This document shows positions 4,322 through 57,900 of a DNA stretch of 64,000 nucleotides, piece by piece. Below the pieces are notes generated by a model, which worked only from the letters and a program-made list of their open reading frames with translations, had not been told where the DNA came from and did no database searches. Each line of letters starts with the position of its first letter. The stretch's first letter is position 1. Origin of the DNA: Cyanidioschyzon merolae (Eukaryota). A program made the position numbers and the translations under genes. The stretch lies in NCBI GenBank assembly GCA_000091205.1, contig AP006496.2; one strand, 5' to 3'.

Positions 4322-6450
4322 ATGTATCGCGAAGTGGCGCACATGGAAACGGTCGAGATTCCGGACGAGTTTTTCGACAAGACCTTTATTCGTCAGCTGA
4401 TGCTTGGCACAGGGGAAGCGCGGAGGGAAACTCAGATAGTGCATGCCCTCCACGAAAACTTCGCGGAATTCCGCTTCGAAGGTAATCGATACAAGGGTGA
4501 CTCGACTATTTACATATACGGGGCGGTGAAGTACCTCACGAACCTGAGGAACCATTTGACGATGGACCTCGAACATTTTATGATACGCGCCGTGTTCGCT
4601 CTCGACCCGCGCATCTCTCGCAAAGGTGCATAGGCGATGATCAATGGCATCACGAAAGATCGCAAGCGTGAAGATGAGGTCGAATTTGTCGACAAGAAGG
4701 CGTCAAAAGAGTGCGTGAATGAAGCTTCTGTAATCCGTGCGGCTATCCAAGAGCATCGTGCGGTACTGGGGTTTGTTAATCCAACAGAAAAGATATCAGA
4801 GTTGAAAAAAGACAAGGAAAGATACTATCGCCTCGTCCTGCGGTATTTCGTGTTTCTGGACCGAGAGCTCGAACGCAAAGCGGAGACGAAGCTGAGTGAG
4901 GAGAGAAATAAAGAGTGGGAGAGACGGGCGGCTTCGCTCATGGGAAGCGCTTCTACGTGGTTCCAATGTGCAACATCAAGTCACATTTTGTGACGATCGA
5001 CTCCAGCATCCTCTATGGCATCATGAGACAGATCAGTGGGGAGTTCGATGTTAGCAACGGGAAGTTCATCGGTGAAAATCGGGAGATGCACTAGAAGAAT
5101 ACCTTCGAGTTCAAACTTCTCAAAGCGGGCAAGCAAAAGTTGTTCACTGGGATGATCGAAACCGATGGAGTAGCCTTGTGTGTACACGATCCGCGGTTGA
5201 AGAAAGATCGTTCAGTGCCGTCCTCGGCTACGCCCGTGACGAAGGATGCAGAAAACAAAGCGGCGGATCCTGCGACGCAGCAGGTAGAGGATAACGACCT
5301 TGTCGTTGGTACGGCGAAGCATGAAGATGAGAAGGAGGCGGGTCTTGAGACGCAGAAAGTGCAGGATAACGACTTTGTCGTTGGCGCGGCGAAGCATAAA
5401 GATGAGAAGGAGGCGGGTCTTGAAACGCAGAAAGTGCAGGATAACGACTTTGTCGTTGGCGCGGACCCCGGGAACACGAATATCGTAACCATCGCAGCAT
5501 CCACGCCTGGGGAAGATGATACTGACGGTGACTTACGTCAGAGAGACATGCGACTTTTGAGATTCCCGACAACGAGATGCTATCGAGAATCCGGTATAAC
5601 GAATGCAAGGAAGAGAATCGAGATATGGAATGCAGGAGTGAAAGAGCACTTCGAAGCTTTGAGCGAGGTAACGAGCCGCGGAACGGACTTTCGAGCTTTT
5701 CGGGAATTCCTGCAAGTTCGTGTTGCTCATTGGGATGCGCTGTGGAGGAGTATACAAAGCCTCGGTGGGCTCGTTTGCGAATGAACTTGCACTGTGGGAA
5801 GCAGCGTGCATTCGCGAATTTTTTCAATGAGTTGCGTGCCCTGAAGGAGGATGAAAGTCAGAGGCCCGTAGTAGCGTCTTGGGCAGGGCGATGGAAGACC
5901 CAAACAGGGACTACTCCAGCTCCAACGACGAGGGTATGCAAGGAGTGTGCACGGCGTTTCGTTACAATACCGATAGATGAGTTTCGAGCATCGTATACAC
6001 ACCACGAGCTGGGTTGTACACTTCAGAGGGTCGAGATGGAAACGTGTCAGCGGCGCCCTGAGGATACAAAAAGTACGGACCGCTGACGGAAGAGCAAATG
6101 GAAAGGAGGGCGACAGTTCGTGGACTCCTTGCACTAGCGCTTTCTGCAAACAACGGCAAGAAACGTATCGAATCGTGAACGGAGACTTTAACGCCGCTAT
6201 CAATATAAGGAAATGTGCGGTGATGGAAAGAAGACCTCCAGAGTAGACAAGTGAGAACTTTGGGGACAACCTCTCAGCGTGGGACTATATGAGAAAAAGC
6301 TGGAAGCAGTAGTGAGTGGCCGCCCCCAAAAAACCGGGAGGCACCTGCACGACAGTTGGAGGCTTCTTGTCTAGGGCGGGCTTCGCGCCACTATTGTACA
6401 AGGTCGGCATCGTTTTTGTTTTGAAAGGCGGTGGTGGTGTGGTGTGTGTA
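4322..6450 (+). pseudogene. Near full-length TnpB/Fanzor-like RuvC nuclease pseudogene (family 1, copy A), with an in-frame stop at 4634 and frameshifts.
   Basis: About 640 codons run across consecutive ORFs 4322..4633, 4637..4993, 5140..5784, 5577..6086 and 5977..6246. RuvC-I is 'VVGADPGNTNIV' at ~5458-5475. RuvC-II with its zinc ribbon is 'IPIDEFRASYTHHELGC' at ~5970-6015, continued by 'CTSAFC' in the next frame. RuvC-III is 'NGDFNAAINIRKC' at 6184-6207. A 3' non-coding tail at 6250-6450 is conserved with copies B and C. Composition from 4100 to 5100 is more AT-rich than the flanks. Confidence 0.7.
5282..5460 (+). repeat. Tandem repeat of about 60 bp, 2.5 units, inside Fanzor-like copy A.
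   Basis: The translated units are 'KHEDEKEAGLETQKVQDNDFVVGAA', repeated. The last unit ends in the RuvC-I 'NDFVVGADPGN' box. Confidence 0.8.
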
Positions 6451-6502
6451 CGTCCTTTCTGAACCGCCAATTTTTCGATAAAAGCCCGAACTGCGTGAGA
6501 TT

Positions 6503-6892
6503 GTGACCAGCGCCAATATGGACGTTGCGTCAGGTACGAAAACGGTGCCCGGGGAGAACGTTTCGCAAACCGAGTCTGACAATCTCGTTGTTCTGGAGCG
6601 GCTTGCAGCGAACCTCTTTCTGCGTGTCAACGAGCTTGAAAGAGCGCTGCCGTCGTGCGAGAATGCTGATGGAGAGACGGGCTCAGAAACGCAAGCACTA
6701 TTGCTAGCACGAGTCTCGGAGCTAGAGTCACAGGTTAGATCGCTGACCCACGAAAACGAACGCCTCAAGTATCGGATCCGGCACTTGGTACGCAGTCTAG
6801 AGGCGGTTTTGAGCCCCCGCACCCAGGTCACGAATACTACCATAGCGTCAGCAGCAACGCCGGTGAACGGCAACCCAGCGGCCACTGAGTAA
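6503..6892 (+). CDS. Hypothetical small coiled-coil protein of 129 aa.
   Basis: Heptad-like leucine spacing appears in 'LERLAANLFLRVNELERAL...LLLARVSELESQVRSLTHENERLKYRIRHLVRSLEAVL', and the composition is protein-like. It lies between the 3' tails of two Fanzor-like relics. No homolog was recognised. Confidence 0.3.
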   Translation: MTSANMDVASGTKTVPGENVSQTESDNLVVLERLAANLFLRVNELERALPSCENADGETGSETQALLLARVSELESQVRSLTHENERLKYRIRHLVRSLEAVLSPRTQVTNTTIASAATPVNGNPAATE

Positions 6893-7339
6893 CACCGAGC
6901 TTGAGAAGCGCTACCCCTGGACGTATGCGTCTGGTACAGGGTGCACCGATCGAGTCCTCTGGTCAGGCGACACGGTCGGAGCCGCGTCTGTGCACGCTGC
7001 TCCGAACGAGCGCGCACTTTGGTACGCGCGACCCTTGTGAAGTTATTTGCTGAGCGACGTTGACCTGAACTCGTGTGCAGCGTACAAGCATGGGTACATT
7101 TGCAAGCGGACGCTGGCGCTTGCAGTCGCACAGGGCAGAGCCAGCGCAATGAAAGATGGTGCAGCGCGTTATGTCCGCACCGTTCTGCACTGCGAATGGA
7201 TCGTTCTCCGCCCGTGTCAGCATTAAATGAAACGGACTCACTAATTAGGGCGTACACGCTTAAGTTTGGGTGTCTGCCCGGAGCCATCAGCAACATTCGT
7301 TGCAGGCTTCTCCGGCTTTCAAGACGCTCGACTCTCTGA

Positions 7340-8110
7340 TCTCTCTGGCCTCGTTGCAAGCAGTCGAAGGATGTTGATGGCATCTTTCAACTCCCGACTT
7401 GGTGCTTCCGGCAGTCGTCAACGCATTTGAAACACATGCCAAAAATTGCGATTTATGCCACTAATGTCACTTTCATCTCCATTGTATGCAGCCGCCGTGA
7501 GCTCTTCGCAGCGCTGCCATTGGACGATGGTCCGCTTTTTCCAAATGTCTACGAAGCTTGCCTTTCAGAGGGCCGCTCTGTGGCGCTTGAGCGCTGGCTT
7601 ATGCACGCAGCACGAGTCAGCGACGAGCAAAGAAGGCCCTCTTCGATGCCCTGCGGCCTCTCCGCGTCCGGTGCAGTACCCCAAGATCACGGGCTTCTTC
7701 CAAGCGATCCCCTTGACATGTACTTTGTTCGTCGCGGTCGCAAGCGCACGCTCTTCCATTCGATAGGGGATTCGTGGAATGCGATGATGTTCGTAATGAA
7801 ACACGTACCGGAAGGAGAACCCATGCTCGTGAACAAGTGGAGCGTTTTCGATCCGTCGACGCTCCTCTCATCCGGTTCAATGACACAACTATCGCCCGAA
7901 GCGATTGCTGTGATGACTCGAGTGCAAGCCGAAGATCCTGTTCCATGCAGACAGAAGAGATGAGTGCCTTTGGAAGCATTTCCCAGAACAAATATCGTGC
8001 CTATGTCGAATACAGTTCCGTTAAAGGCCAAAAAAGATGAGGATTGATGTTTCGAACGGAATCGAATATTTGATGGGATACGTTCAGTGCACTTTCGGCA
8101 TGAGCACATG
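7340..8110 (-). mobile_element. TnpB/Fanzor-like relic, family 2 copy 1 (degenerate).
   Basis: The minus-strand ORFs 7687..8109 ('SMGSPSGTCFITNI') and 7565..7804 ('KGIAWKKPVILGYCTGRGEAAG') are homologous to copies at 20.1, 42.1 and 57.2 kb. A RuvC-III-like 'SRELKDAINILRLLATR' box is at ~7349-7399, where the catalytic D is replaced by E. Confidence 0.55.
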
Positions 8111-8600
8111 AAGAACGCATCAAGGGACGATGCCGAACGTTCTTCTTCGTACGTCTAGCGGCGGGAACGGTAGTGCGCCTACCAGTTGCAAAGGAGCCGC
8201 AAAATCGACCACTTGAAGCGCGCAAGATTTGAGCGTGCCACATGAAAGAAAAAGAGAAGCGTCGAAGTTTGCGCGTATGTATTGGTTGATGATGCCCAAT
8301 CGTGTAGGAAAGCTTGTCTCATGGCGTTGCGGATCATCCTGGTGAAGGTAACGTAACGAATACCAGGAACGATGCGTCGAAGGAGCCACTCCGGACAGAC
8401 GACCAAACATCCTAAACCTACGTATGCATCCATTATACCTCATTGCTGTACTTCGAATGTCAAGGCTGCACCTCTAATGAATCGTTCGAACACAAAATCA
8501 AAAGGCAGGAACACACCGATCTGTTCAGTGTTCCGGCTCGATTCGACACCGGCTTGGATGGACGAGCGCGTGATACGCTCGTAACGCCGGGGACTCTCAT

Positions 8601-9012: not shown

Positions 9013-10937
9013 TATGCCGTTTCAGCGGTAGCGAGCGATCTAAGTCGAACAGGGCGACCTGCTGTCGCTGACCCAGAACGATTCGTATCGGCAAGGCACG
9101 AGAACGTGACTCCCTCCATCTTCTATATTTGGCTCTACAAACATCCACGAGACACGCCGCTGTGTGGCAGTGCTCACAATGAGAAGCGGTGTCCACAGCA
9201 AATTGTACCACGTAGCCGCGGCAAGAGGTCAATCCGGTTACAGAACCTACATCCGCTGGCAATGCACTGGAATGGATGCAATCTTAGTGTCGTAGCGCGA
9301 TAGGGGCGCACGTACGCGCCCCCAGCGATGCGAGCGCAGCATTGCTTAGGCGGAATCCCAGGGGCTCAAACACGCAGCCGGGGCTTGAGTGCAGCCAGTA
9401 CGGTGTCGAGCAATGCCATGATCATGAACCTCGCCTGCGTAGCAAGACTGTTCATGCGTGGCGAAAACCGACCAATCTCCTCGTATGTATCGCTTGATCC
9501 CTAATGGAGCGCGTGTTTTTGTGTGACCGCAGACTGGCGTCGAGTGCGATGCATACGCGCCAACATTTGTGAGATCTGGTATATTGTTGGCGTTGCCTGC
9601 TGCCGGCCTCAATACGAGCGCAACGCTCCCCGGATCCTGGATTTGCATCAGGAACCTGACCAATGACAAGATCCACCTTTTGGCACGCCCCACAACTGTA
9701 CATCGTCGTGTAAACGTGTCCGCATTGCGTTACCAAGCACGAGGCATTCCCCTACATCGCAGGCATCGATGGATGCGCTGCAGCGCAGCGGAAGACGATC
9801 CAACCTTTACGCATCTCGATTCTGAACAGGCCACATCCGAGTGCTCGTGCAGACATGAGGGGCACCGAGGCGTCCCGCCAGGCGTCCCAGCTGGCTGCGA
9901 GTCGACAACCTGCTGCTCGCAGCAGAGCTCGTCCACGAAGTATCGGGAGGTTCCCGAATCCGCAAAGTTTCCCTCATGGTGACGGACTGACCGCAGTCCA
10001 CTGCCCGACGAGTTCAGCTCATCGTCGGACATTGGCACCAGCAGGTGTATTGCAGCGATTCGGAGTCGGCTCCGATGTGCACGTCCACCAGTTCACTTGG
10101 TGTAGGTAGGATCGATGAAGCTATCCAGATTCCCGTGGAGCACGCATACCACTACCAACACGGCCACCACCAGTGACCCTTTCGAAACACTCAACCGTAA
10201 CAAAGCTCCTTTGTGGCAGAATTGCCACCAGCACTAGACCCAGCAGAACACAGACCTGTCGCTCGGCATATGCCATGGGCGACTCTGTTATGCCGCAGGA
10301 TCGCCGCACAGATCATGCAGGCGCACCGCCTGCGCATTAGCGGTGATGCCGCCCCTCCCGTGAACCTGATCCGCGCCCGCCTCTTGACGGCGACATGGCT
10401 CGCGGAGCATGGTTGAACCCCGCCTCGAGCTGGCGCCCGCAAGGGCATAGCGAAACCGTTCTATCTGCGTGCGGTAGCCGCAACGCGACAACAGACACGC
10501 ACCTGACAATGGGCATCCGGGAAACCGCTTCAACGGAACATTACCCCGCGAAGCACGGTCTGGTGTGCTGCAGACAGAACATTATGAGTCTGGAACAGAT
10601 TACGATTGACTTTTGCTTGATGCCGATGACAATGGCTCATCCTGAGGAATCCTGCTTAAATGCATCAATCCTACACCATGAAAAGTCGTGCACGCACGAC
10701 ACCGGATGCGATGCGTGCCGCAGATCGCCTCCAGAAGGCCGTCACCGCATACTCGCCGTGCGTGCATCTCGCACCGCCGCCGGCGCATGCGTGACGGCTA
10801 CACGTGTATTTTCTCCTCAACGATCTCACGCATAACGCGGGGTTGTCCATTAAGAGGCTCGCTGCGGAGGCGCCTACCCCAACGACACAGGAGCGTCCAA
10901 GGCCAACGCCTGCCGTTCCTTGTTAGAAAAGGCAACT

Positions 10938-12464
10938 ATGCTGTGCCAAGTTCGAGGCAGCGAAAGCGATCTCCTGCGGCTTGCTGCCGAGAACCCCGAG
11001 GGATTCGGACCCTGCATACGGCCCAGCGGTTGCTATTTTCGGGAAGAACTGGACGCGCTTCTGGCGCGCCCGCCTGTTGATGGACAGGTGCGGCAGCGAA
11101 GTTTTTCGGGAAGTTTGCTACCGAAACTGGGCGCGGCAGCGCAGGGTCTCAGTGCGTGCTGCACAGGGCTGGAATCAAGGCGTTGCGTTGCGCAGCTTGG
11201 GCACGTCAGTAAGCCACCAGCTGCGCTTTGCGAGCGTCTGGTTTTGTTTATCATTGACTATGACGACACCTTGTATCCAACGAGTCAACTGGGGTCTGCT
11301 GTGCTTCAGCTACAGAGGTTGGAGGAGCTGGCCCAGGCGCAGGCTACCCGCGAAGCTTCACAGCGTGCGGTGGAGGTTCCGCGCTCCCCGAGGTGCTCCT
11401 CACTGCCGCCGAGTCCTGACACGCGTTCCTCAGTGATGCTTGTTTTGGATGACTCTATACCCTATCCGAGTTCCATGCAGCTGGACCAGCACCCATCGGA
11501 GGCGGCTGACGAGATGCATGCGGATGCTCCGTCGGCCGTGCCGAGCATTCGCCCTGGCAGGAGCCCGGGGACCCCGTACGCCACCAGCGAGATCACGTCG
11601 ATATTCACGCAGTTGGCGTATGCTCCCGCTGAGCTGTACGCCTTATGCGTTGAGCTCGACGAAACGGTTTCAGCCTTTCTAACTCTCTGTCTTGACTCGG
11701 GTCGGAACCATCACGTCTCTATTGTAACGAATGCTGACTTGCGTTGGGTGTTTTCCTCGAGTAGGGGCGCGCTACCCCGTACCCATCGTCTGCTATTTGA
11801 CAAAACCGTTTTCGACGCGGAGGCTGGTGCCATTCACACCAGCACTAGCACGAGCCGTACATGTGCTTGCATTTCGGCTCGCGGGCGGTATGGTGACCTG
11901 CGTGATGACGGTACCGAGGCCGTCGGCAGAGACCCGACTGACTGGAAAGTGGCCTGTTTTCGCGACGAAATCGAGAGAGTTCTTGGCGAACGAGATGCGC
12001 TAAGGCGTGAATGGGCTTTTTGGCAGCAGCAGCAGGAGCTCCGCAAGCAAGTCCTGCACGGAAGCACACTCTGGGACGATGCGTTCGAGACCGTATGCGA
12101 GAAGGAGCCCTGCGAACGCTGTCTGGATGCACATCGGCAATTCGAAAGCGATCGACGGCAGCGAGGTATTCGTATGCCTTCCGTCGCCTCCCGAGCTTGT
12201 TTGACGAAAATCCCCTTTGACCTCTTCGTGATCGGTGATAGTGAATATGAAATGGAAGCTGCTCGAAAGATTCATGTCGAATTTCCCATGGCCCGTCTGA
12301 AAGCCATCAAGATGATCGAAGAACCTAGCATGGTGGATATTATGCATCAGCTCAGAGAACTTGCGAAAGAATTACCAGCGTTTATTCAGGCCCGTGGAGA
12401 TCTCCAGCTGGAGCTGGCAAAGTCAACTGGTACGTCTTTGGATGACGTGCACACCTTAACTTGA
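10938..12464 (+). CDS. HAD-superfamily phosphatase-like protein carrying a large low-complexity insertion.
   Basis: Motif I 'LFIIDYDDTLYP' is DxDxT (MDP-1-like DLDYTLW). The motif II candidate is 'HHVSIVTNA'. Motif IV is 'LFVIGDSEYEMEAARK'. About 300 aa of S/P/A-rich sequence lie between the core motifs. The track start at 10920 is TTG; the ATG is at 10938. Confidence 0.5.
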   Translation: MLCQVRGSESDLLRLAAENPEGFGPCIRPSGCYFREELDALLARPPVDGQVRQRSFSGSLLPKLGAAAQGLSACCTGLESRRCVAQLGHVSKPPAALCERLVLFIIDYDDTLYPTSQLGSAVLQLQRLEELAQAQATREASQRAVEVPRSPRCSSLPPSPDTRSSVMLVLDDSIPYPSSMQLDQHPSEAADEMHADAPSAVPSIRPGRSPGTPYATSEITSIFTQLAYAPAELYALCVELDETVSAFLTLCLDSGRNHHVSIVTNADLRWVFSSSRGALPRTHRLLFDKTVFDAEAGAIHTSTSTSRTCACISARGRYGDLRDDGTEAVGRDPTDWKVACFRDEIERVLGERDALRREWAFWQQQQELRKQVLHGSTLWDDAFETVCEKEPCERCLDAHRQFESDRRQRGIRMPSVASRACLTKIPFDLFVIGDSEYEMEAARKIHVEFPMARLKAIKMIEEPSMVDIMHQLRELAKELPAFIQARGDLQLELAKSTGTSLDDVHTLT

Positions 12465-14697
12465 TTGCAGAACCGCTTGTTTGCTCGCGTAAAACATGTA
12501 CACTGACCAAGATCAAAATGCAGGAACGCCAATATCTTCTACGAATTGCCTGGGAGAATCGGTCCCGGTTTCTGTATACAGCGATTCAGGCTTGCTGGAC
12601 GCCTGCTTCGTGGAACCCCAGTGTCTCGCGATCGGCGAGAGTCCAACGCGCTCTCACCCGACCACTGATGTATTTGCATCGCAAGTCTTCGGCAATTCAG
12701 TGCATTACCTAGACTGTGTTCTAAACAATGCCCTCCAAGTCCACGCACCCCAGAGCCGCTAAAAGCCCCGGAGGCATGACATCATCGTCGAAAAATGACC
12801 AAGGTGTTCAAGTCTGTGTCCAGAGAGTGCTTGCGCGCATGGTCGCTGGCGGAATCACACGGAAACGAGCGTCGCTCCATCGATCGCATGGCCATCCGAC
12901 GTTTCCTCATCTTAACGGACATCTTCTGATGCATATGAATTTGTTTGCAATCCCATCTTCCCGATCTATTCCAGGTGCACCTGTGCTCTTTATAAGCGTA
13001 CCTCGTCCGAAACGCATCGGTGTTCGTGGTCCAGAATCGATTCCTGCACCCGTCGCACGTTGTCGTCGAAGGATGCGGCGTGCCGCTTTCGTGCGTGGCA
13101 CTACGTCCAGCGTTATTGGATACCACGAAACGGCGCCTCGTATCGGCGATTTCCATCTTCAATTCATTGCAATGTATCATGGATGCACGCATGTTGCCTC
13201 CTTAGAACCGAGACCTGTGGAGATGTCGGCTCGGTTTCGTGGGCACCCGCCAAAGATCGCCCGCATGAGCCGCTTGGACGCTCATCTACGCTCTCTGAAT
13301 AAAGCCTCCAAAACGTCCCTTCTGCTTGGTAGGGTGCTCAGAGCATGGTGATGTGTTCGGATACCGTCATGCCAACTGTTCGTATTCCTTTTAGCGTTCC
13401 TATGTCCGACGCTCAATCATACAGATCCCTCGACAAACGGAGCAGCTCCAACTGCTTTCCGTTCCTGCGTTTCGCCCCGTGCGCTCGATTTTTCTGTACA
13501 GCAACGACCATGACGATCTTGGACCCGGAATCCGGGCTCACCACGAAGCGTTCCTCTTCAGCTGCCTTGCACGGGTGAAAACGAGTCTCGTTAGATAACT
13601 CAGGCCTTGATTTCAGGAGTTTTACACAGATCATGCAGATGGATATTCTGTCGGTCTCTCAAGTCTTTGCGTACTTCTTTCCATTTTCTGCCCGTCTACG
13701 GGGAACCTTGATCGAGCTCCACCAATGCCCATTGCGAACTTTGTCGAATGCTTCATCGTTGATCACAGGTACCGACTACATCGCTTGTTCTTGCGCGGTA
13801 TGCTGCTATAGATGTCGCCTCTAGACTTCATACCCGCTTACTTCCGGTTAGTTCAGACGCACTGGATGCGCAGCAACACAGAATCACGTCTTTTCTATGT
13901 ATTTACCCACCATTCCTCGACTACAATTCATTCACCCTCTACGTCGTGAGCACGCTCACGGGCAGAAGCGAACCTTTCTGCCCCGGCCCGAGCTCGAGTA
14001 GAGAAGCGGCGTACCTGTCCAATGGTGCTGAAGGTAGAGAACAACTCGAGTAGAAACATGCGAGTTTCAAAACGGTGTTCGATAACAGACAAGACACCTG
14101 CGACTGCACTTACCTGGATCGACAGAACTTCTACACTAGCCAGGCATCGCCGATTCCGCGATTATCGTCGGTATCGCGGAGCGTGTCTCTCGTTCTTCGT
14201 ACGACATTCAAGCTCCGTAACCCATACTTATCCATGGAGATTCTGGCCATTCCGTACGTTTCATCGTGCTTCAAACCTGCCGTGAACGTCCGTCATAGCA
14301 CTTGTGGCGCCGGTGCGCACGCTACATGGAACAGAGCAGTGTTGTTTTGGACTGTACTGATGTAGGGCGAATAGGCTGGCCCAGGGAGCAGCTCAACGCC
14401 AATCTCAGCTGCATAATCCCTCGGCCGCTTTTGAGTGATGCAACCCGAAGTCGTCCATGACCAGGACAGAATCGTGTCGGCAGGAGAATCAGCGAGCAGT
14501 ACTGCGATGAAGGATGCAGTGTTTTACCATACTGCCGCTCTGGCGACGAACAGACGACCGCATGATTGCATCGTCGCTCGGGAAGCTGTTGTGGACGCGC
14601 GCGCATGGCCGCCTCTGTACGAAGAGCGGTTTGCCCCTACTGGAGTTCCCCTGCAAACGCCTGTCATGTCAAGTCTCGTCGAGTGAGCCGAACACGT

Positions 14698-18761: not shown

Positions 18762-20129
18762 GCTTGGCTCGAACGTGCGCACCAGTGCACCGCGTAGAGA
18801 AGACGGGCCCAGCTGAAGCCTATGTCCTCTGAATTGACCAATGAACCTCCAAAACAGTCAATTGACGCGAGAGAAATTCTCGCTAGCTTCACCACAAGCA
18901 AGAATGTTGAGCGTTCCGCCCACACCTGCCGAGACGGTGGAACCAATGGAACCACGCGGACGCTACAGTTTCTTCAAAATACGAGCGCTCTATCCAAAGG
19001 GAGCAGCTAACCACGCCGTATCCGTCTAAAAGCGCAAGTTTCGTGCCAAAGCCTCCGTAGCACGCGTTCGTAGCCTATATCGTTCCTGGTGCAACCTGAA
19101 GCTCCGGGGATTGTTTCGTGCGATCGGCACCGGATCGTTCACGCCCGAGGCGAGCGGCCGAGGACGCTTCATTCTGCGAACATGAAAATCGAAAAGTGCC
19201 GTGCCGCAACGCTCAGGATTCGCTGGAAGGCACACCTGGACGCTTCCATCGGTTAGCAAAGAAATAGACTCGACACAGGTGTCGGTGAAGAAGCTGACGG
19301 TGCTTTCGTATGCACAGGCTGCGCTCAGACGTACCGACACACGCGTCGTACTATCGTGGAACACTGAGATACAGGCTCTGTTCTATGCTTGAGATTTTTA
19401 CGAACATGTTTCTCGATGTACATCCTCAATTTTTGACGTACAACAAAAAGGATTAATGAATGCAAGTTTAGTTTGGGATTATTGATTGTCAGTTCGGAAT
19501 GGCTCATTCGACGCGTTCCCGCTGGAGTTCGTGACGATCCGAGACTACAGATGATTCGTGACGCTCTCCAACAAGAGCTCCTAAACTAATCGATATAGAC
19601 ATCCAATGCATACGTAAAGGCCTGCACGCTCGTCCTTTCCTGACGTATACCATGCTCAAATCATGCACTATTCAAATTTCTGGTCTCGCTGTTTCAACGC
19701 AACGCGCGGGAACAGCAAATCGCGCTGCAGTATTGACGAGGAAAAGAATCCGACGACGAGCCCTGACAGCTTCCTCATATACGCTTATGCCGTAAGTTCC
19801 ATGAATTTGTCGCATCAAGTGATCGACTCCGTTCGATAGACAAATTCTCATCGCTTTGCGGCCTTCGGCGAAACTGGACTCGACAGCAGCATGATACCTC
19901 GCATGGGATATGTTTCCAGAGACGGCAGGCTCTTCTGCTCACACGGGAATGGGTGTTAGGCTCGGACTTCAGTCACCGCAGTGATCGCTTCTGGTGGAAG
20001 GTGCGCCAACGCTCGGCATGATGGGTGCCTAGGCGGGTCGAAAGCTGTTGCCTTCTCCGCCAGCTTGGATTCTCCTTCCCGAACTTGTATCATTATGGTC
20101 ATCGTCGCTTTCCGTAAATCCTCTATCGA

Positions 20130-20900
20130 ATGAGACTGTGTGCACTTGCGTGCGCAGCAGACGGAATACTCGCAGAGGGCATCACCCAGAAGAAGCCCGT
20201 CACCATAGGGTACGGCACCCAGCACGGAAACGAAGGAGCGCATCGTGACGAGCTTTTCGTACCCGTCATCGGCACGTACCGAGTGATGAAGGGAATGTTC
20301 ACGTGGAGCAGAGCAGACCTCGGAGAATCAGGTACGGTGGACATATCCGAACAACTGGCTACACGCAGGAGTCGCTGCTGTAAAGCGTGCACTGAGACGA
20401 AACGCAAAAAAGATGAAAATGAGAAGTGAGGCGTCGATCGCAACGACCGTCTGGGCATGAAATGCGTGCAAAACGTACACAAGTAGCGAAACTGGGACTT
20501 AAACGCTACCGTACATATCCGTTGACAGCGGACAATGGAACATGAGGGATTGGTGAGACCGTCGTCGCATTGAAAGCTGATCACGAGAGAGAGAGGAACA
20601 AGATGCGGTTGCAGAAAAAATCTCGTAGAGGCTGGTGTTGATGAAAATGAGAAGCGTCCCAAACTTGAGGGTTTCCATCCGAACGAGTATCCCGGTTCAG
20701 CGTTATTCTGACATGGGCGTGAAAACATCAGAGCATGGCTCTGGTCCCTGCAATGCATCATGCCGCCTCTGTTACGGTCCGCTTCGCTCTGGTATGCTCG
20801 AGTGCGATATCCACTAATGGCAGTGGTCTCGCGCGCCTGCTCAGCGCACGGAACTCGACTGCGCATGAGCCGCAGCGTTTCGCGCACCGGACTTGCACTG
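20130..20900 (+). mobile_element. TnpB/Fanzor-like relic, family 2 copy 2.
   Basis: ORF 20130..20429 'GITQKKPVTIGYGTQHGNEG...VDISEQLATRRSRCCKACTE' carries the RuvC-II E and a CxxC. The RuvC-III box 'WDLNATVHIR' (D at ~20486) is immediately followed by a stop. The downstream tail 'tctgacatgggcgtg' is shared with copy 3. It lies immediately 3' of the helicase gene. Confidence 0.6.
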
Positions 20901-25560: not shown

Positions 25561-26188
25561 GGCAGAAACAGGTCATGCGCCCTGGTGTGTCACCGTGTGC
25601 TGAACGCATCAGCGATTCGCCCAGTGCAGCGATGTTTACGTTTCACGATGGAAAACATACACTGAATGGGCATGAACCACGGAGTGTACGGCGGAATGAA
25701 AATCAGCACTATCCCCGCCAGAATTTGCAAAAACCCCGAACTTAACGGTAATCTAGAAATGCCACGTGGTCCTTTAGAAGAGCGTCGTCATACGGCATCG
25801 AAAATTCTCCAATGATTCGACAAAGAACGTGCTGTTGTATCAGCCTTGCCTGTGAGCGAAACTGAGGCCGCCAAGTGGATCCGCTCCACCTGGACCAGAC
25901 GATGATTTCCGAGTTCTCCTCACGTTCGATTGTACATACAACGGAACACCCTGCTCCGCGAATACCCGTATACGCTCCAACCGTCTCATCCGATGAAAGT
26001 CTCATCAACTGAAAAAACAAACCGACTTGCCTGTGCTTCATACCGATGGTTGAGTTCTGTGAATTCTGTTGTTGCGGATTCGGCGGAAGCTGTGCTTTCG
26101 TGAACCTGGACTTTATTGCGCCCGGATCCCAGTGTTTTGAGGGTCAAACGAACAATCTGTTGAGAAACAGAGACGCTTGTGGGAACTA

Positions 26189-31620: not shown

Positions 31621-31733
31621 CACCGCAGCCGTCTACAAGATGCGCGCGCGCGAGCGACGCTCGACACATCTTTCAACTCAATTTTGTTTCACCCTAGCTG
31701 CGGTGGTGAGCAGGAGCTCGAAATCACGATGCA

Positions 31734-35290: not shown

Positions 35291-38200
35291 CGGTAACTTT
35301 GCAACCAATGCCCTTGAAAATATGCGTTTCTTTTCCCGAACCGGTGCTAAAATCGTTATCCTTACCGTAAGACTGACCGTAGGTGCTCGCCCGCACTGCA
35401 AGCCACGCCGCAGCGACAACGTTGTGAGCAAGGATTGTGTCCTTCTCGGCGAGACGGGTGTCGCATCGTTTCCGCTTCACCCGCGTCAGGTTCGAGCAGA
35501 ACACTGCACTGCTCGCTCCGTTCCCACATCTCGAACTTCTTCCGAACTTTTCTTCGATGAACAGCCTTGAAATTCCAGGTACAACTCTAACTGGTGACGT
35601 ATTCGTACGTGTTTTCAAGATCATCGGTCGTATTTTTCGGAGTGGCTCCTTTGAAACTTTGCCACGGGCATTCTTGACGTTACGGGAGTCAAGGCGATGC
35701 GTGACGCACTCGAACAGGATTTCAAAAAAAAGACCAATATCGTTCTTGAATATGTAGGAATAAACCTTGACGTTTCGTACCGTGTACGATATCCAAACCG
35801 CATACGCTTCAGGTTTTCTATTCTTATGTTTCATGGCATTTCATGTGTGCACAGCGACTGAAGCCGCTGGATTGGCGACGAAATATCCTCGGTGTCATTT
35901 CCTGAGGATTTGCCCGCAAGCTCATGCCAGCTCCTCACGAATCCCGGCACATCAAATAATCGATTCCGCTCGAAACACGAATGCTCCTCTCTTAATCGCC
36001 ACCGTGAAAATGGTATTCGACGCAGCACGATACCTCCGAAGGGGGAATGCTCGCAGGGGCTCCCGTCTGTTTTGTTTGCCCGGAAAAGAGTCCCTGACTC
36101 GGACTTGAATCATTTCAGTGATCTAGTCCAGTGAAGGATACGTCATCGCTTGGCACGAAGGGAGCATAGACGGTTGGACACTTCTCGATTCCCTTTCTAG
36201 ATCAGAACTTTATGTTGAATTCGTAATTCGTGATGGACAACATCGCGCCCCGCAGATTCATTCTCAAACGCAAAAGCGTGCATCCGCGTGTGCTGCGGAT
36301 AAAGGACTTGCCTTGGGGATCGCCCGGAAGCAGGCCGTGATCCTGGTACACCACATCGGGCACGGAAACGGATGAGAACATCCAGGAGATCTTTCCGTGT
36401 ATGTCTTGGGGATGCGCCAGCCATGTTCAGCATCTTGTAGCGTGACAGAGCGACACTCGCATGAAAAGCACTAGTAGACATATGTGACCATCTGGCTACG
36501 TTGAAGCGTCAACGCTGCGGACGGCGCATCGAGACGATCGAGAAAGATGATGAAAATTTTCACAAGCAGCATCGTTCGCCACTATCTTCCGTGCATCAAA
36601 TGCGTGAACAACTACCCGAAGCATTTTAGTCGGGAGTTTCACGCAGCCACGAACATCCCCCGACTGCTGCTAACGGCGCTGTAAGGACAGGAGACACCGG
36701 CGTATGTAACGCGGGATGTAAGCGCAAGGAAAAGAAAACAGTCGCCGAAAAAGCGCCCAAAGTGCGCTTTGAATGACACGGGGAAGAAACAAAAACTTTA
36801 GCGTGTACACACGAGTTGGCTAAGTGCGACCCGCACCATCCCAGTCTGACATGGATCTAAACTAGGCGGAAACGTCAAGTCGTGTGGTTGTGCATCTGGT
36901 CATTGCGTTTTCAGGGAGGATCCGATAAACTTTTGCCGTTATCGATGCGCGTTCTCGCGTTTCGGGGAAGCACGGGCTCGTGCGACATCCGAGTCAGCAA
37001 CGGTAGGATTCGTCGACACTGTTGTGTCCGGTTCCTTGAGGAGTTGAGCATCCGTCGCTGCCGCCGTGCGCGCTCCGAACAGGTCTGTAGTGATGGAGCG
37101 CTCCTCAAAGCATTCATTTAGTCTTGATAGTCTCTATCCCGCCGGCGTCTGAGAATAGGGCGCTGCTGATGTGCCTCGCGTGACGGGTATCAAAGTGCGA
37201 GCCCGGTGAGCAACTCGTGTGCGCCAATCGTCGCTCTGGTTTTTCTGGAACGCCATTCCGCACTCTGCCCCGTTCAAAGGGTATCGCACGCGCATCTGCT
37301 CTCGAAGCCTCCAATAAACACCAGCTTGTGTCCGCAAGAACTTGAAAAATTCCAAGGAACCGCGCTCAGATACCAGCAACAACTTCCCTTCATGACATAA
37401 AACGTGATGCATATGCGGAAAGCGCTCGCAATGTAAGCACCCCAAAGTGCGGCTCAAGTGTTTGTCGACTCGTTTTCGAACATTTCCTGGTCGGCCGAAA
37501 GCGCCACCCTCGACTTTCGTGACTTGCCGTCGATGGACTACGAGCACGATCCACGCACCTCATCAAAACTCGACTTGTATGGACATAGAGGACGATGGAA
37601 CCTCGCGCCAGTGCCGCTCGGTGCCGCTGGATTCCTCCTCATTTTTGGAAATTGACGCAACATTGTACGTTTTGTAACTGCAACTCCAGCGACGCTTCCA
37701 AGGACGAGTCCGCCACTAGGGAGCGCCCCGTGTACGGACGCATGACGAACCAGATTGAACCGCTGCTCTCTACGAGTAGCGGAACATAGGCACTGCTCCA
37801 GAGAACAGCTTCCGCGGTGCCTCAAATTGAAATGCACCGGGACGTAGATGAACATGCTCAGCTCCGTATGCACAGCGCACGCTTCATGAGCATCCCATGG
37901 CCATATCTGAGGATCAATGCGAACTCGCTTTCACTGTCGAGGTCTGTCGGGCAACGCCAGGAACGGTCTTATGGCTTCAGCACTCGCAGCAGCGAGGACT
38001 CATTCGGTGTTATAGCGGGTCAACGCGAATACCGTGGCCTCGATTCGTGCAGCACGCGGAAATGCCCAAAGAATTACGCATGATCAAGCAAACTGGGCTT
38101 GAATCGGGCGCTTGTTCACGGAAATCAAACCACTGACAATGACCAGACGTCGCCAACGCGCTACCTCTCCGAACAAGCTGCAGCGCAAGCAACATTGGAC

Positions 38201-41899: not shown

Positions 41900-42600
41900 T
41901 TCGCATAGGCACACTCACACGAGAATGAAACCGAACAGGTCTACGGACTCGGGCGTACACACGCCAAAGCCTGGCTCTCTTCCCAGTGGTACGAATAACA
42001 ACCCGTGCGGGCTTTTTCGGCGACTGCTTCTTTCTTGCTTTACTCTGTCTCGACCGCTCTGTTGTCAACAGTCGAGGGATACTCATGGCTGCGTTCAAGT
42101 CCCTGGGACGATGTTTCTGGCTGTTGTCGACACATTTCACGCACGATGTAAGTCGGGCGCTGCGCTTTGCTTGCCATATATTCACCTTGTTTATGTGCAG
42201 CCTTGATGCGCTCTTTGTAACAGTGACAATTGAGTGCGATCAGGTGTTCTTGTCTATCCATAACACGTCGTGCTGCGAGTTCCGCGCTGTGGCTCGTGAA
42301 CACCGGCTTCATCGCTCGGTTCGTGCACTTGCGCGGTACATGAGGCATATTCCGATGCACTCCTCCGTTTCCAAACCGGCTGCAGTACGCTACGATCACA
42401 TAGTTCTGCTGGATGATCGCCTCGATTACTTCGCTGTCCGCAGCACGCGCAAATGCAAACTGTTCCATTCGATGAAGGATTTGTGAAACGTGACGTTCAT
42501 GATCATGAAAAAAAGTACCGGAAGGAAAATCCAGGTTAGGGAGAAATTCGGGTAATCTAGATCCATTTGCGCTCTTTTCATGCAAACCAGTGACACAGTC
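41900..42600 (-). mobile_element. TnpB/Fanzor-like relic, family 2 copy 4.
   Basis: Minus ORF 42040..42585 'DFPSGTFF...VIEAIIQQNYVIVAYCSRFGNGG...QEHLIALNCHCYKERIKA' has the RuvC-II E and the first CxxC. Overlapping ORF 41517..42185 begins 'LTSCVKCVDNSQKHRPRDLNAAMSIPRLL', which carries the second CxxC immediately before the RuvC-III RDLNAA box. This is the canonical TnpB C-terminal architecture split over two frames. Confidence 0.65.
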
Positions 42601-43458
42601 CGTACTGGACGCGATTGCTGCGATGACTCTAGTCCGAATCCAAGACGCTTTTCATGCAGACGTAAGCAGTGCGGGCCTCTGGGAACAGATCCCGATGACA
42701 GGTATTGTTTTGCTGTTGAATGCGGTTTCGTCGATGGTCACGAAGCGATGGGGATTCTTCTTTAGCACGGAATCGACGATTTGTAGTGACAATCTCAGTG
42801 GACTTTCAGTGTGATCTTATGACTAATTCCTCAACAAACGCCATCGAGCACTTTTCGCTGTCAATGCAACCGCGTCAATAAATGCACCAACGAATCACCA
42901 TGAAACTTAACGATCGAAAACTTGAAGAATACGTGATTTGGGTTTCATACACGTAAGCATTCGAGAATCATGGAGGTTTCTACATACATATTGCATCGCG
43001 ATATCGGTTGTTCGACGAAACCCATCTTCGAGAGCGTCTCGAATCATCTTGATTCCGTTAACGAAACGTATTGCTGCGGCGAGAAGAACGAAGTCGAGAG
43101 AGCCACCCCATATAGACGATCGCGAGTCCCAAAACTACGTACGATGTCGATAGCCTTTATTGCTGTACTTCGAATATCAAGGATGTATATCAAAAAAGAC
43201 AGGAAAAATGGAAAAGGAGGAACAGAGCGAGCACGTCCCTGTTCCATTTTCGTCCACGACGGCTGGAGGACTGGGTATACGAACAGCGCTTTGCGATGAC
43301 GCGTCAGGTAGGTAACCCTGGAAAACAACTTGATGCGCCTACAACTTGCGTGAGCACTTGCTGAAAGCCATATTTTACTGAAGGCTGAATCAACGGACCC
43401 TGCAGATGAGTTTACGTCGACGTGACTGCGAGCCCGCGCAACCAGCACTAGCGGGCCG

Positions 43459-47839: not shown

Positions 47840-48529
47840 ATGACAAGCACAGGAATGCCCGATCAGCACATTTGTATGCATTTGTGCAGTTTTACTGCGA
47901 AAAGCAGAGTCAGCGTCATGCCACATTGGAGCTGGCTCGTGAGCGAGCCCAGGAAACGACGGGAAACGCGGCACCAGTTGGCGACTACGAAACGGTGCCG
48001 GAGGCACTACGGAGGCGTCCCTGCAGTCCAGCTCGGCTGCAGTGTGCGATCCAAGGCACCGAGTCTGCGGTATCGAATGCACGTACGGCGGCTTCTCATG
48101 AACGCGTTCCTCTATAATCATTGACCTGGTCCATTGGAACGAATCTAGGAAGCAGGGAACGGCTCGAAAGGCGCATCGACGTAATTAGACGAGTCTATGT
48201 CAATGCCAGAGGCAGTGCGGGATCGACGTCGCGGTCCTTTACGGCGTACGAGGTACGCCCCTCACCGTGATGCATTGCATGGTACGCAACGGCATCCAGA
48301 GCCACACCTGGATGGCCGGATTGAGTCCAGTTCTGCGATGTACCGAAGGTTTACACGCAGGACATGCGGGCATCGCCCGTTCTAGACATTGTGTAGCCTT
48401 GCGGTGCCGCCAAAGGCTGACGCCGGCGATACGCGCTGCTTCTTTAGGGTCGTATGGATTGTTCGACATCCGCGCTGATGCTCCAGATGGAAGCTGTGCC
48501 AGACCTGGTGGTGAACCCTTAAACCATCG

Positions 48530-48823
48530 GAAGCGGCGCTTCGGTTGCTTGCCGGACAGACGGCAGCATTCACGTATTTGGAAGCGTTCATTGAAACGCA
48601 ATGATTCTTCACGCTAAAAAAGTATCAGAAGCGGCGCTGCGGTTGCTTGCCGGACAGACGGCAGCATTCACGTATTTGGGAGCGTTCATTGAAACGCAAT
48701 GATTCTTCACGCTAAAAAAGTATCAGAAGCGGCGCTGCGGTTGCTTGCCGGACAGACGGCAGCATTCACGTATTTGGGAGCGTTCATTGAAACGCAATGA
48801 TTCTTCACGCTAAAAAAGTATCA
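48530..48823. repeat. Tandem repeat of a 98-bp unit, 3 copies.
   Basis: The unit 'gaagcggcgctgcggttgcttgccggacagacggcagcattcacgtatttgggagcgttcattgaaacgcaatgattcttcacgctaaaaaagtatca' begins at ~48530, 48628 and 48726 with 2 mismatches. A fourth unit diverges at 48824. Confidence 0.85.
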
Positions 48824-49575
48824 GAAGCGCCTGTGGAGCCGTTGTCGGTGCCCTGGCATATCCAGTAATATCGGAGAAAGAAACAACCATATCTTTCGCC
48901 GATTGCTCAGAAGCATGGTATCCGACTCAAAAATAGAGCAATCCAATCGTGTTGGATGACGGAACCGCACTATACCAGCGCCTTGCCCCAGGCGAGAGTT
49001 CAACACCGGCTCTCCGGGCTGCTGATTTCCTTTTCATCGAAAGGCTGCAGCAATCCAACACCATGCCAACACTGAGTACTGACGATTACGTCGAAAGTTG
49101 AGGCGACATAGAGCCTTTGCAGGCACCACAGGAGACTCCGTTGCATCAATCCCTACATTTCTGAGCCAGCAAGATGAGACTACAACGCCCACAGCGTGTC
49201 CCTCATTAAGCGCTTTACAGTGCCTCGCACATGATGTGTTCGTTTGGCTGTATACGTACTGGGACCGACGCTGTAGCTGGTCAGATGGTCATTGGAAATG
49301 GCGACCCATCAATGTATCCCGTGAAACGTGTGTGCAAGGCGGTAATCCTACGATCCAGCCGCATCTCATCTACTGCATCGAGCATCAGTAGTGTTCCCGC
49401 ACGCAGGTTTGATTGAAAGATCCCAGAGGAATACGGATAGCGGACAACCATGCCTCCAGAACTTTTATGGAAAGTTGGCTGAAGCGGTGCGACATGGCGA
49501 GGGAGGCTCGTCGAGCCTCTTCCAAGTACGAAGCTGAGCGATCCCGAACGACATCCTGCATCGCGTTTTCGGGGG

Positions 49576-50150
49576 ATGCTCGCCTTTCATATGCTTCCAT
49601 CGGAAGCCCGTGACAATAGCCTCATACTGGCCTGCCGGTTTCGAGTGTGCTTCTATTTTTATTGTACTCTTTTCGAGAGGATCTCCCACTTCTCTCACTG
49701 GTGGAATTGTGTCCTCCTCGTGCACCTTGCAGGGCGGCATGGATTTGGTCGCTATGCTCTTCGTCCGTGTTCTTCATCGAAATTCAAACGAATTCGGTGG
49801 ACGACGGGACCAGAATTCTACTGTTCTATGTATGTCTCTACGATTCCTCAGGCGGCTTTTCGTCATCTAACAGAGGCAAGAAACGCCTGGAGTTCGTGAA
49901 CTGAGACGTTAACGCCGCCGTCCATATCAGACGATGTGCGGTGCTGATGACGAGACCCGCGGAGCTGACGCAATCTAACCTTGTGGGGTAGTTTCTCTCG
50001 CTCGAAATATGCAAGGAAAAACTGAAGTCGATAGCAGGGGCCCGCCGAAAAAGACCAGGAGGCGTCCGCACGTCAGTGGGCAGACATAGAGCCTACGGCG
50101 GGCATAGCGCCGCTCGTCACCACTGTACACCGGCTGTATAGCGTTTGTCG
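49576..50150 (+). mobile_element. TnpB/Fanzor-like 3' fragment, family 1 copy C.
   Basis: The RuvC-III box 'RDVNAAVHIRRCAVLMTRPAELTQ' begins at 49905. The downstream tail, 'gcaaggaaaaactgaagtcgatagcaggggcccgccgaaaaagaccaggaggcgtccgcacgt', is conserved with copy B (minus strand, 24950-25125) and with the copy A tail (6300-6400). The upstream frames are disrupted. Confidence 0.6.
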
Positions 50151-50199
50151 CTTGAAAGGCGTGTCGCTCTTGCTGGTAGCGAATGCCTGCGTGGCTGCT

Positions 50200-56256: not shown

Positions 56257-56831
56257 CCTCGTACGGTAGCTAGACGGAGCTCTTCCGTTCGACTATCGAG
56301 TAAAGAGCCGCTTTCTCGTTCTGAAACTGGTCGCCCACAGCGTCGAGCGTCGAGCGACAGCCTCAGCACTCGTTCGTGCCCTAAACTCGCGTTGAATAAA
56401 ACTGGAACACTGATGTGTACGCTCTGTTCTTGTCATTCGATAATTGTTTTAGATGTACAGTGTCGATATCCAAGTGCAGCTATCGGGACTGTCAAATTCA
56501 TGCGTACTTTTAGGATGCTCGGTTGTCTTTCCGGTGTGACGCCTTTGGCTCGTCGCAACTGGAACTCGCTGCACCACCGGAAAGATGATGATACGCGACA
56601 CCCTGGAACAGTGGCTCGCAGCATCATCGTTCGTTATCCAAGGCATGGGCAGAGGTCCCCAGTGTTCCCCATTTCCTTAGGTAGAGCATGCCCGAATCAG
56701 GTGTTCTTCAAGTTTTCGATGTTCCTGTTTCACGGCGGCTTGTGGGCGCAGCGATTCGCGCCGATGGATGAACCACGAGGACATACTCGACGTCGTTTCT
56801 CGATGACTCGTTCACAAGCTCGTGCCGGAAC

Positions 56832-57077
56832 TTCACTCAACACGTCACTTCAAACCATCGATGTCGATCGAAAGTCGCGTCGTCATTTGTCTACGATCAT
56901 CGAGGAAACTGCATCCGATAACAGCATGATACTGCCTACGTGACTTGATCCCGGTTCACTCAACACGTCACTTCAAACCATCGATGTCGATCGAAAGTCG
57001 CGTCGTCATTTGTCTACGATCATCGAGGAAACTGCATCCGATAACAGCATGATACTGCCTACGTGCCTTGATCCCGG
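56832..57077. repeat. Direct tandem duplication of a 123-bp unit, 2 copies with 1 mismatch, immediately 5' of Fanzor-like family 2 copy 3.
   Basis: The unit 'ttcactcaacacgtcacttcaaaccatcgatgtcgatcgaaagtcgcgtcgtcatttgtctacgatcatcgaggaaactgcatccgataacagcatgatactgcctacgtg.cttgatcccgg' is repeated. Confidence 0.85.
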
Positions 57078-57171
57078 AGGCTTCCATCATTCCTTTCTGG
57101 ATGGAAACGCTTTTTGGAGTCTGACTTGAGTCATCAAGTAGATCGCTTTAAGTAGAACGTGCCTCACTGAT

Positions 57172-57900
57172 ATGCATGAACGGAGCATAGATCGATCAAA
57201 AGTTCTCGACATGTTCTCGAGCATAGATTCTCCTTCCGGTGCTTGTTCCATCATGGACAGCATCGAGTTCCACAAATCGTCCATCGGATGGACCGGCATG
57301 CGCTTGCGTGTGCAACAGACAAAGAACTCTTCGAGGGCATCGACCAAAAGAAGCTCGTGATCGTGCGGTACGGCACCGGGTACGGAAACCGAGGACGGCA
57401 ACAACACGAGTCTCCCGTACCGGTCAACGGCATGGAGCAAGCGATGTCGTGCTGGTCACGCGTAACAGGGTCGACCTCGGGGACAGCGGTAGGCGTCGTG
57501 TACATCTGCGAACATCTGACTACATTCAGTTGTCACAGCTGCAAAGAGCGTACCGAGGCCGTGATGAAAAGTACGTAAACTGCAAGCGAAGCGTACCTGG
57601 CGACATACATCTGTGCATGAAATGCATGAGCAAAATTCGAGAGCAGCTGAGTTCGGACTTTTTCTGCTGTTATCAGCAGCGTTCGAATACTGACGACAGA
57701 GCTGGAGCAACAGCAGAGACCTGCATATGTAAAGCCGGACACACGCGAGAGATGAAGAGCGCGCAGTCACAGCGAACACCCGCACAACCCTGACACTGAC
57801 CACAGTATAAACAAACCAAAACCTGAGCTCTTCCGACCCAGATTGGTAAATAAACCCGTTCGATTCCTCTGACATGGGTGTACCTCGTCAAGCCCTCAGG
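57172..57900 (+). mobile_element. TnpB/Fanzor-like relic, family 2 copy 3, with a decayed RuvC-III.
   Basis: It contains 'SIDSPSGACS', then 'GIDQKKLVIVRYGTGYGNRG...VVYICEHLTTFSCHSCKERTE' (RuvC-II E and CxxC), a second finger 'HLCMKC', and the box 'RTFSAVISSVRIL' at ~57651-57680 where RDxNAAxNI would be (D replaced by T). The tail 'tctgacatgggtgta' is shared with copy 2. Confidence 0.55.

Follow-up and report, generated by a model that had tools for sequence, protein, structure and literature searches.

A 64-kb stretch of DNA (64,000 nucleotides, contig AP006496.2; hereafter the window) from nuclear chromosome 14 of Cyanidioschyzon merolae 10D, a red alga living in hot springs, very probably contains copies, now dead, from two transposon families bearing Fanzor1 sequences, together with a single relic from a third lineage of Fanzor1. 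These copies are neutral relics between host genes, and none of them can now encode a nuclease. An initial annotation of the window had described seven decayed TnpB/Fanzor-like copies in two families. All seven intervals hold genuine TnpB/Fanzor-related sequence, and chance motif matching was rejected as an explanation for them. The proposed distinct families, their decay and their old, repeated transposon activity were supported, and no intact copy is present within the window. The count of seven was incomplete, since a further copy of family 2 (copy 5, 35478-36857) and the relic at 12626-13796 had been missed. The intervals given were also too small for family 2, whose copies actually measure 1.35-1.5 kb, and copy A of family 1 starts at 4029 rather than 4322.

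Family 1 and the state of its copies

Alignment identifies family 1 as CMe-1A, a Fanzor1 element described by Bao & Jurka (2013; PMC3627910); it is also the interspersed repeat counted by Nozaki et al. (2007; PMC1955436). CMe-1A was reported to be present in C. merolae in about 150 copies with ~80% identity to a 3,169-bp consensus. It has no terminal inverted repeats, its sole gene is a single-exon gene for a 734-aa Fanzor1, and some copies still encode intact Fanzor1 (PMC3627910). Nozaki et al. counted 253 copies of a ~3.2-kb repeat, about 5% of the genome, which is transcribed and contains a truncated open reading frame (ORF) resembling WSV486 of white spot syndrome virus (WSSV) (PMC1955436). 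With 253 copies counted, one to a few CMe-1A copies per 64 kb are therefore normal for this genome. The initial annotation had stressed that such nucleases are rare in eukaryotic nuclear DNA, a consideration that does not apply here, CMe-1A being the most abundant interspersed repeat of C. merolae (PMC1955436, PMC3627910).

The 3,169-bp consensus was taken from the supplement of Bao & Jurka and aligned to the window by blastn. Copy A, at 4029-6430 on the plus strand, corresponds to consensus positions 645-819 and 1080-3169 with 85-86% identity. Fragment B, at 25259-25478 on the minus strand, covers consensus 2737-2985 (76-84% identity), and fragment C, at 49875-50161 on the plus strand, covers consensus 2889-3169 (72% identity). 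A Fanzor1 hidden Markov model (HMM) built from 19 diverse homologues was run on the window, and its matches are reported as independent E-values (i-E). It matched copy A over 4199-6273, with i-E down to 1e-61, fragment B at 25254-25409 (2.8e-8) and fragment C at 49881-49985 (1.1e-6); tblastn also picked up these three regions. B and C are short 3′ stumps of CMe-1A. Fragment B carries the motif KRDFNAVINI at 25302-25331, and in fragment C a stop codon has replaced the arginine codon of the RD box. Copies A and C end at an identical 3′ terminus, GAAAGGCG, read directly from the sequence.

At the protein level, the published CMe-1 protein matches the translation of copy A. When this translation was pieced together it found 102 homologues, the best of them 64-71% identical and many of them carrying Pfam DUF8286. 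A tblastn search with one 752-aa relative (P0001) spans 4199-6261 in five consecutive pieces, which switch frame without a gap in the protein coordinate. The family shares with the published element its 3′ terminus, the motifs IETDG, GADPGN, DEFRTS and RDFNAAINI, and the lack of inverted termini. Copy A matches the published consensus at the identity given above over 2.3 kb, and nothing was found that is different in kind. The copies in the window differ from it in being truncated and frameshifted, and copy A also has two extra units of a 75-nt repeat.

Copy A lacks consensus positions 1-644 and 820-1079, and the start ATG (consensus 906) falls in the second of these stretches. Relative to the consensus it has five 1-nt deletions, at 4942, 5744, 6069, 6172 and 6263, and four in-frame stops, at 4319, 4631, 5092 and 6244, two of them being TGG to TAG changes. 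The initial annotation had allowed that the frame changes might be spliced introns of an expressed gene. Introns do occur in some eukaryotic Fanzor genes (PMC3627910), and the repeat family is reported to be transcribed (PMC1955436). However, at each frame change a single base is missing and there is no intervening sequence relative to the consensus, so that the changes are indels and not introns. Four in-frame stops and the deletion of the ATG region also argue against a live intron-containing gene, as do the listing of CMe-1 as a single-exon gene (PMC3627910) and the presence of introns in only 0.5% of C. merolae genes (PMC1955436). We regard the chance that copy A is such a gene as practically nil.

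The catalytic positions of copy A can still be followed across its broken frames. They were compared with a family alignment (A2). The RuvC-I motif GADPGN named in the initial annotation is indeed present at 5458-5475 (plus strand); its aspartate is kept and it aligns to the DPG of the alignment, in which D484 is invariant. The RuvC glutamate lies in IDEFRAS at 5973-5993 (plus strand; E656, invariant in A2) and precedes the target nucleic acid-binding (TNB) region, a location that has been described for this residue (PMC11423790). In the RuvC-III box, GDFNAAINI at 6181-6207 (plus strand), the arginine has become glycine and the aspartate is kept. The D...E...D series (D484, E656 and D725, all invariant in A2) is therefore collinear in copy A, and is no longer in one frame.

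Directly upstream of RuvC-I, Tandem Repeats Finder detected a 75-nt tandem array of 2.7 copies at 5262-5464 on the plus strand. The array encodes a 25-aa repeat in the linker and makes copy A 150 nt longer than the consensus without a change of frame, equal to the two extra units. The number of 25-aa repeats varies: the consensus has one, copy A about three, and P0001 four to five, and in the AlphaFold2 model of P0001 the matching region (residues 374-471) is disordered.

Four fragments resembling the 5′ 635 bp of CMe-1A lie at 9-278 (minus), 2853-3320 (plus), 10414-10471 (minus) and 28586-28728 (minus), and are 64-76% identical to the consensus. This 635-bp segment was named TE-N2_CMe by Bao & Jurka, who reported about 70 genome copies (PMC3627910). 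Copy A has the fragment at 2853-3320 some 700 bp upstream of it, but this fragment is far more diverged than copy A. Beside fragment C, on the opposite strand, 49397-49576 (minus) weakly resembles the Fanzor1 profile in its N-terminal part, both by HMM (positions 51-108, i-E 0.002) and by tblastn (E 0.02-0.06), which may be a further relic or chance. Fragment B is abutted by one arm of an inverted pair of ~1-kb repeats (25478-26491 and 31668-32685) that are 70% identical and without a long ORF; the pair is probably another unclassified non-autonomous element.

Family 1 compared with known Fanzor1 and TnpB proteins

Homology, fold and the order of catalytic residues identify the product of family 1 as a predicted Fanzor1. 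A profile of 19 family-1 homologues matched the Guillardia theta Fanzor1 (PDB 9CER) with E 4.6e-7 across the RuvC region. The initial annotation had expected a RuvC fold for a reconstructed copy A; the Fanzor1 fold, which comprises WED, REC, RuvC and TNB, was obtained on the model of the relative P0001, not on the decayed copy A itself. The AlphaFold2 model of P0001 (752 aa, pLDDT 76.7, pTM 0.71) matched the Spizellomyces Fanzor1 structures 9CEZ and 8GKH in Foldseek with E 1e-16 and a target-normalised TM-score of 0.70. The Parasitella and Guillardia Fanzor1 structures came next (E range 1e-13 to 1e-16), and Cas12 and TnpB appeared at E > 0.01. In family 1 the catalytic D is found in GADPGN, the E in DEFRTS and the second D in RDFNAA, an order that agrees with the description of Fanzor1 (PMC11423790). 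The CMe-1 family was included in Fanzor1 by the authors of that group's definition (PMC3627910).

P0001 is a 752-codon open frame of CMe-1 type at 10001-12259 of the locus L001 (metagenome Ga0504780_000149), and is 71% identical to the CMe-1 consensus. Its GADPGN, DEFRTS and RDFNAA motifs are intact. It has a mutation at the ancestral ATG position and lacks ~35 residues at the C terminus, and we therefore describe P0001 as near-intact and not as clearly functional. An intact nuclease had been suspected elsewhere in the genome. Some CMe-1A copies are intact according to the literature (PMC3627910), whereas our searches found only near-intact proteins, in hot-spring metagenomes (P0001, and the locus L066 described below).

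The initial annotation had also placed two CxxC motifs after the RuvC-II glutamate in every copy. These were found in family 2 and are absent from family 1. In the motif of Bao & Jurka a C4 zinc ribbon, CxxC...CxxC, separates the glutamate from the RD box. No CxxC pair of such a ribbon is present in the CMe-1 consensus, P0001 or copy A, which read DEFRTSYTHHELGC...C...VRGLLALVS; the motif shared by the consensus and copy A is DEFRxSYTHHELGC...C, without CxxC. The alignments indicate a lineage-specific loss of the zinc-ribbon cysteines in the CMe-1 consensus and all its close relatives. Among the solved Fanzor1 proteins (Spizellomyces punctatus, 8GKH and 9CEU-9CEZ; Guillardia theta, 9CER; Parasitella parasitica, 9CF0 and 9CF1), the fold is like that of P0001, the D...E...D order is alike and the profile match covers RuvC. 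The CMe-1 lineage differs from them in its 12-15% sequence identity and in having lost the CxxC...CxxC cysteines of the TNB.

Bacterial TnpB (IS200/IS605, IS607, OMEGA) has a homologous RuvC and TNB core, and PF07282 hits both the family-2 consensus and two distant relatives of family 1 (P0100 and P0102). The C. merolae copies differ from TnpB in their eukaryotic nuclear host, in the lack of a TnpA partner and in a much larger N-terminal part, and family 1 lies below the Pfam TnpB thresholds. The Pfam TnpB models reached no significance on the decayed family-1 copies or on their close intact relatives. The Pfam search proposed in the initial annotation thus failed on individual decayed copies, and succeeded for family 2 only when a 29-copy consensus was used. 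Family 1 was recognised instead through DUF8286, the match of its profile to the Guillardia theta protein and the fold.

A chimeric element in family 2

Family 2 is, as read from its consensus, a predicted non-autonomous element of Tc1/mariner-IS630 type, 1,380 bp long, made up in part of a transposase remnant and in part of a Fanzor1 remnant. The TnpB/Fanzor identity proposed in the initial annotation thus held for family 1, on the evidence of the profile, the fold and the 86% match to CMe-1A, whereas family 2 as an element is of Tc1/mariner type with a Fanzor1 3′ end. The four intervals listed for it correspond to the 3′ parts of longer repeats, whose DNA identity among themselves is 65-74%. 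A scan of metagenome contigs yielded 74 loci, all from Cyanidioschyzon-like contigs, and from these a consensus of 29 distinct copies was made. Each listed copy in the window has a near-identical metagenome orthologue.

Against this consensus, copy 1 (7209-8556, minus) is 73% identical, copy 2 (19338-20719, plus) 75%, copy 4 (41908-43265, minus) 74% and copy 3 (56384-57880, plus) 74%, the last with an internal 123-bp duplication at 56832-57077. The previously unlisted copy 5 (35478-36857, plus) is 71% identical over element positions 1-1377. When the near-intact Fanzor1 of the metagenome locus L066 was used in tblastn, it matched the four listed copies with E 1e-11 to 5e-15 (copy 1, 1.3e-14; copy 2, 4.5e-15) and copy 5 with E 1.2e-6 and 1.8e-5. 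In copy 2 the CxxC motifs occupy 20373-20390 and 20454-20471, and WDLNATVHI occupies 20490-20519. In copy 4, FVTIDETAF, with the first transposase aspartate, lies at 42718-42744, and the interval 42078-42231 contains NCHCYKE, CVKCVD and RDLNAAMSI. In copy 3 the second transposase aspartate is part of SIMDSIEFHKS (57247-57279), and FSCHSCKE is found at 57525-57548, and copy 5 has SREFHAATNI at 36628-36657. The RD.NAA box, which the initial annotation had reported in each copy, is degenerate in most copies of the two families (GDFNAAINI, RDFNAVINI, *DVNAAVHI with a stop at the asterisk, RELKDAINI, WDLNATVHI), and a strict regular expression found one exact match, at 42078-42104. In the copy listed at 57172-57900 the box has been lost altogether.

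The 29-copy consensus has a sharply bounded conserved block of 1,380 bp, at whose ends conservation climbs and drops. The block is terminated by inverted repeats of 25-29 bp, CACCCGTGTCAGATTAAAATGGAAC and its complement, which match at 27 of 29 positions if the adjacent TCTA/TAGA is counted. An inverted-repeat search on single window copies gave no consistent termini, and these are visible only in the consensus. TA adjoins both consensus termini, both ends of the copy at 56384-57880, and the right terminus at L066. The assignment to Tc1/mariner rests on the DDE_3 and helix-turn-helix (HTH) hits and the inverted termini, and not on TA as a target-site duplication.

In one frame the consensus has HTH regions and codes for a DDE_3 transposase that extends through FVAIDETAF and IMDNIAFHKS. 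The Pfam DDE_3 match has E 4.4e-10 and 40 bits (cut-off 28.6) over profile positions 3-117 of 146, and HTH_33 (E 4e-4) and HTH_Tnp_Tc3_2 (E 1e-3) matched below their cut-offs. The third catalytic residue of the transposase is absent because the gene is truncated. The downstream Fanzor1 part is in a different frame and reads QRALA...KKPVIVGYGTGRGNGGG...VVDIWEHLTTVKCHRCE...LCMKCV...RNRDLNAAINILRLL, so that CxxC...CxxC...RD is present; it matches PF07282 (Cas12f1-like TNB) with E 9.9e-8 and 32.5 bits (cut-off 26.3). The truncated DDE_3 transposase makes up the 5′ 60% of the unit and Fanzor1 the 3′ 40%, or ~185 C-terminal codons. The two coding parts are out of frame in all copies and in the consensus, and the longest open frame in any family-2 copy is not above 257 codons. 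A natural in-frame transposase-Fanzor fusion protein was rejected, since the frames differ in the consensus. With a consensus of four copies, DDE_3 (E 0.018, upstream) and PF07282 (E 0.0013, downstream) were weak hints, and a word-indexed protein search gave no matches. The C-terminal parts of the four window copies were aligned with the Fanzor1 alignment by hhalign with a probability of 92% (E 5e-7).

The metagenome locus L066 contains a near-intact 726-aa Fanzor1 in which IETDG, DPGR, CxxC...CxxC and RDFNAAINI can be read. Over the final ~160 residues its identity to the C-terminal part of family 2 is 47-56%, and a related terminus lies next to TA downstream of this Fanzor1. Directly upstream of the 726-aa ORF, at 1910-2386 of the locus, is a second ORF fragment with the RuvC-II-like sequence ARFAPGGYG...TPTT...VVDEFRST, which suggests nested or tandem Fanzor insertions.

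The upstream half of family 2 might alternatively be a degenerate WED/RuvC-I region, the copies then being true shortened Fanzor/TnpB genes. An RNase-H-like fold is common to RuvC and DDE, FVAIDETAF bears a superficial resemblance to the xxGxDxG strand of RuvC-I, and there is weak similarity to L066 for ~20-35 residues upstream of QRALA in the Fanzor frame, overlapping the transposase frame. However, the upstream half is above the DDE_3 cut-off, with the two HTH matches further upstream, its IMDNIAFHKS is a second-aspartate motif typical of Tc1/IS630 transposases, and it is in a different frame from the Fanzor part. Neither the Fanzor1 HMM nor tblastn with the whole L066 Fanzor1 found anything Fanzor-like in that half, the latter giving no match upstream of residue 520, and a complete nuclease (WED, REC, RuvC-I) is thus absent from family 2. 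We consider the shortened-gene explanation very improbable.

A composite arrangement similar to that of family 2 is known from PUl-1 and PUl-4 of Pythium ultimum and from PGv-1. In these Fanzor1-bearing Tc1/mariner elements (PMC3627910), a DDE_3 transposase lies 5′ and Fanzor1 3′ in the same orientation, as in family 2, and both have inverted termini of ~25 bp with TA next to the ends. Residues 647-784 of the PUl-1 Fanzor1 give a collinear alignment of the C-terminal part of family 2. A blastp comparison of the N-terminal part with the Pythium PUl-1 transposase was not significant (E 0.47). Family 2 differs from the PUl-type elements in being a 1.38-kb deletion derivative, without the last third of the transposase and without the first ~70% of Fanzor1. 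Capture of Fanzor1 by Mariner elements has been described, and one Fanzor1 family is listed for C. merolae, family 2 not being among the families (PMC3627910). As the two remnants are out of frame, the simplest origin would be an internal deletion in a composite, Pythium-like mariner element with transposase and Fanzor1, and we infer that the defective derivative would then have been amplified in trans.

Several observations weigh against this account of the window. A composite parent, with full transposase, full Fanzor1 and the same termini, was not found, nor was a left terminus or transposase found next to the L066 Fanzor1. TA is palindromic, cannot be separated from the inverted repeat, and has been lost in most window copies. 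Pfam found nothing significant on the individual decayed copies A and B or on those of family 2. Finally, the 3′ regions of both consensuses fold only moderately better than shuffled sequences (z -2.5 for the last 266 nt of the CMe-1A consensus and -3.0 for family 2). Such folding is compatible with an omega-RNA and is not evidence for one.

RNA-guided cleavage has been shown for the Fanzor1 proteins of Spizellomyces, Guillardia and Parasitella. In these living relatives the RuvC site makes double-strand cuts guided by omega-RNA (PMC11423790). By analogy, the family-1 protein would bind an omega-RNA made from the 3′ terminal part of the element that encodes it, and would cut matching DNA through its RuvC site. 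For both families, homology and fold suggest an omega-RNA-guided mechanism of this kind.

In TnpB and Fanzor systems the 3′ part of the gene and the end of the element together give rise to the omega-RNA. Another explanation for family 2 is that the Fanzor 3′ end was kept as an omega-RNA source and that the copies were guide-RNA satellites served in trans by a Fanzor1 and a mariner transposase. All 29 copies keep the Fanzor 3′ region and the right terminus, the defective element reached at least 29 copies, and folding of the consensus over its final 240 nt has a z of -2.98, a value equalled by 1 in 200 shuffles. However, any internal deletion that spared both termini would look alike, and about 570 nt of coding sequence have been kept, beyond the needs of an omega-RNA. 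Moreover, every copy has diverged by 25-29%, and an intact Fanzor that could act as partner was not found in this genome (the whole of 10D was not itself searched). We therefore judge this explanation improbable. It is hardly more probable that the element owed its spread to having kept this 3′ end and the right terminus, in which case a Fanzor1 acting in trans could protect it or re-copy it after excision. If the satellite explanation were true, family 2 would be a eukaryotic counterpart of the bacterial elements that carry omega-RNA alone, and the number of Fanzor1 lineages once present in C. merolae would be three or more instead of the single one reported. Internal deletion of a composite parent remains our preferred origin for family 2.

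At the 3′ end of copy 1, a 330-codon ORF with an ATG start (6391-7383, minus) begins about 175 nt within the element. Orthologous metagenome loci (L005 and L020) have a 331-residue stop-free frame at the matching relative position. The product of the 330-codon ORF has no exact match in the protein collection, and the annotated start may thus lie further downstream.

A third lineage and the genomic setting

The lone relic at 12626-13796 (minus) was found by tblastn with the protein P0057 (E 2e-29) and has 28-34% amino-acid identity to Fanzor1 proteins of CMe-1 type. The Fanzor1 HMM matched it at 12947-13763 (minus) with i-E 1.5e-9 and 6.3e-8. Remnants of its motifs are VVSPDSGS (RuvC-I), TDAFRTRY, in which the glutamate has become alanine, and DTDLNTLV (RD box). 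It gave no blastn match to CMe-1A, and no further copies were found in 572 kb of related loci.

The assignment of the window to nuclear chromosome 14 of C. merolae follows from exact protein matches. Eight conceptual proteins of the window were matched exactly in a public collection; seven are C. merolae 10D entries (BAM81222-BAM81234), with CMN116C and CMN121C among their locus tags, and the eighth clusters with the 10D entry BAM81225. The product of the cullin gene had no exact match on record. The uninterrupted long ORFs encode typical eukaryotic proteins, including a cullin, an ABC-B transporter, a ZGRF1/UPF1-like helicase, NCBP3 and a MatE transporter, and base composition is even across the window at ~55% G+C. 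Bacterial contamination was rejected, as the Fanzor-related copies sit between the exact-match nuclear genes. Two tandem arrays in the window are unrelated to the Fanzor elements: a young array at 48526-48829 (98 bp × 3.1, 98% identity) and a 19-bp × 5.9 array at 31505-31618.

The discovery value of these copies is small, as publications of 2007 and 2013 had already presented the main family, as a repeat and as a Fanzor1 element respectively, and the presence of Fanzor1 inside mariner elements is an arrangement already described. What is gained is the 1.38-kb element with a truncated transposase and a Fanzor1 tail, which now has defined termini and a reconstructed consensus. At the level of sequence, family 2 and the relic at 12.6-13.8 kb show that there are more Fanzor1 lineages in Cyanidioschyzon than the single one in the literature. 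The near-intact relatives from hot-spring metagenomes, P0001 and the L066 protein, are possible starting points for a Fanzor1 derived from a thermo-acidophile.

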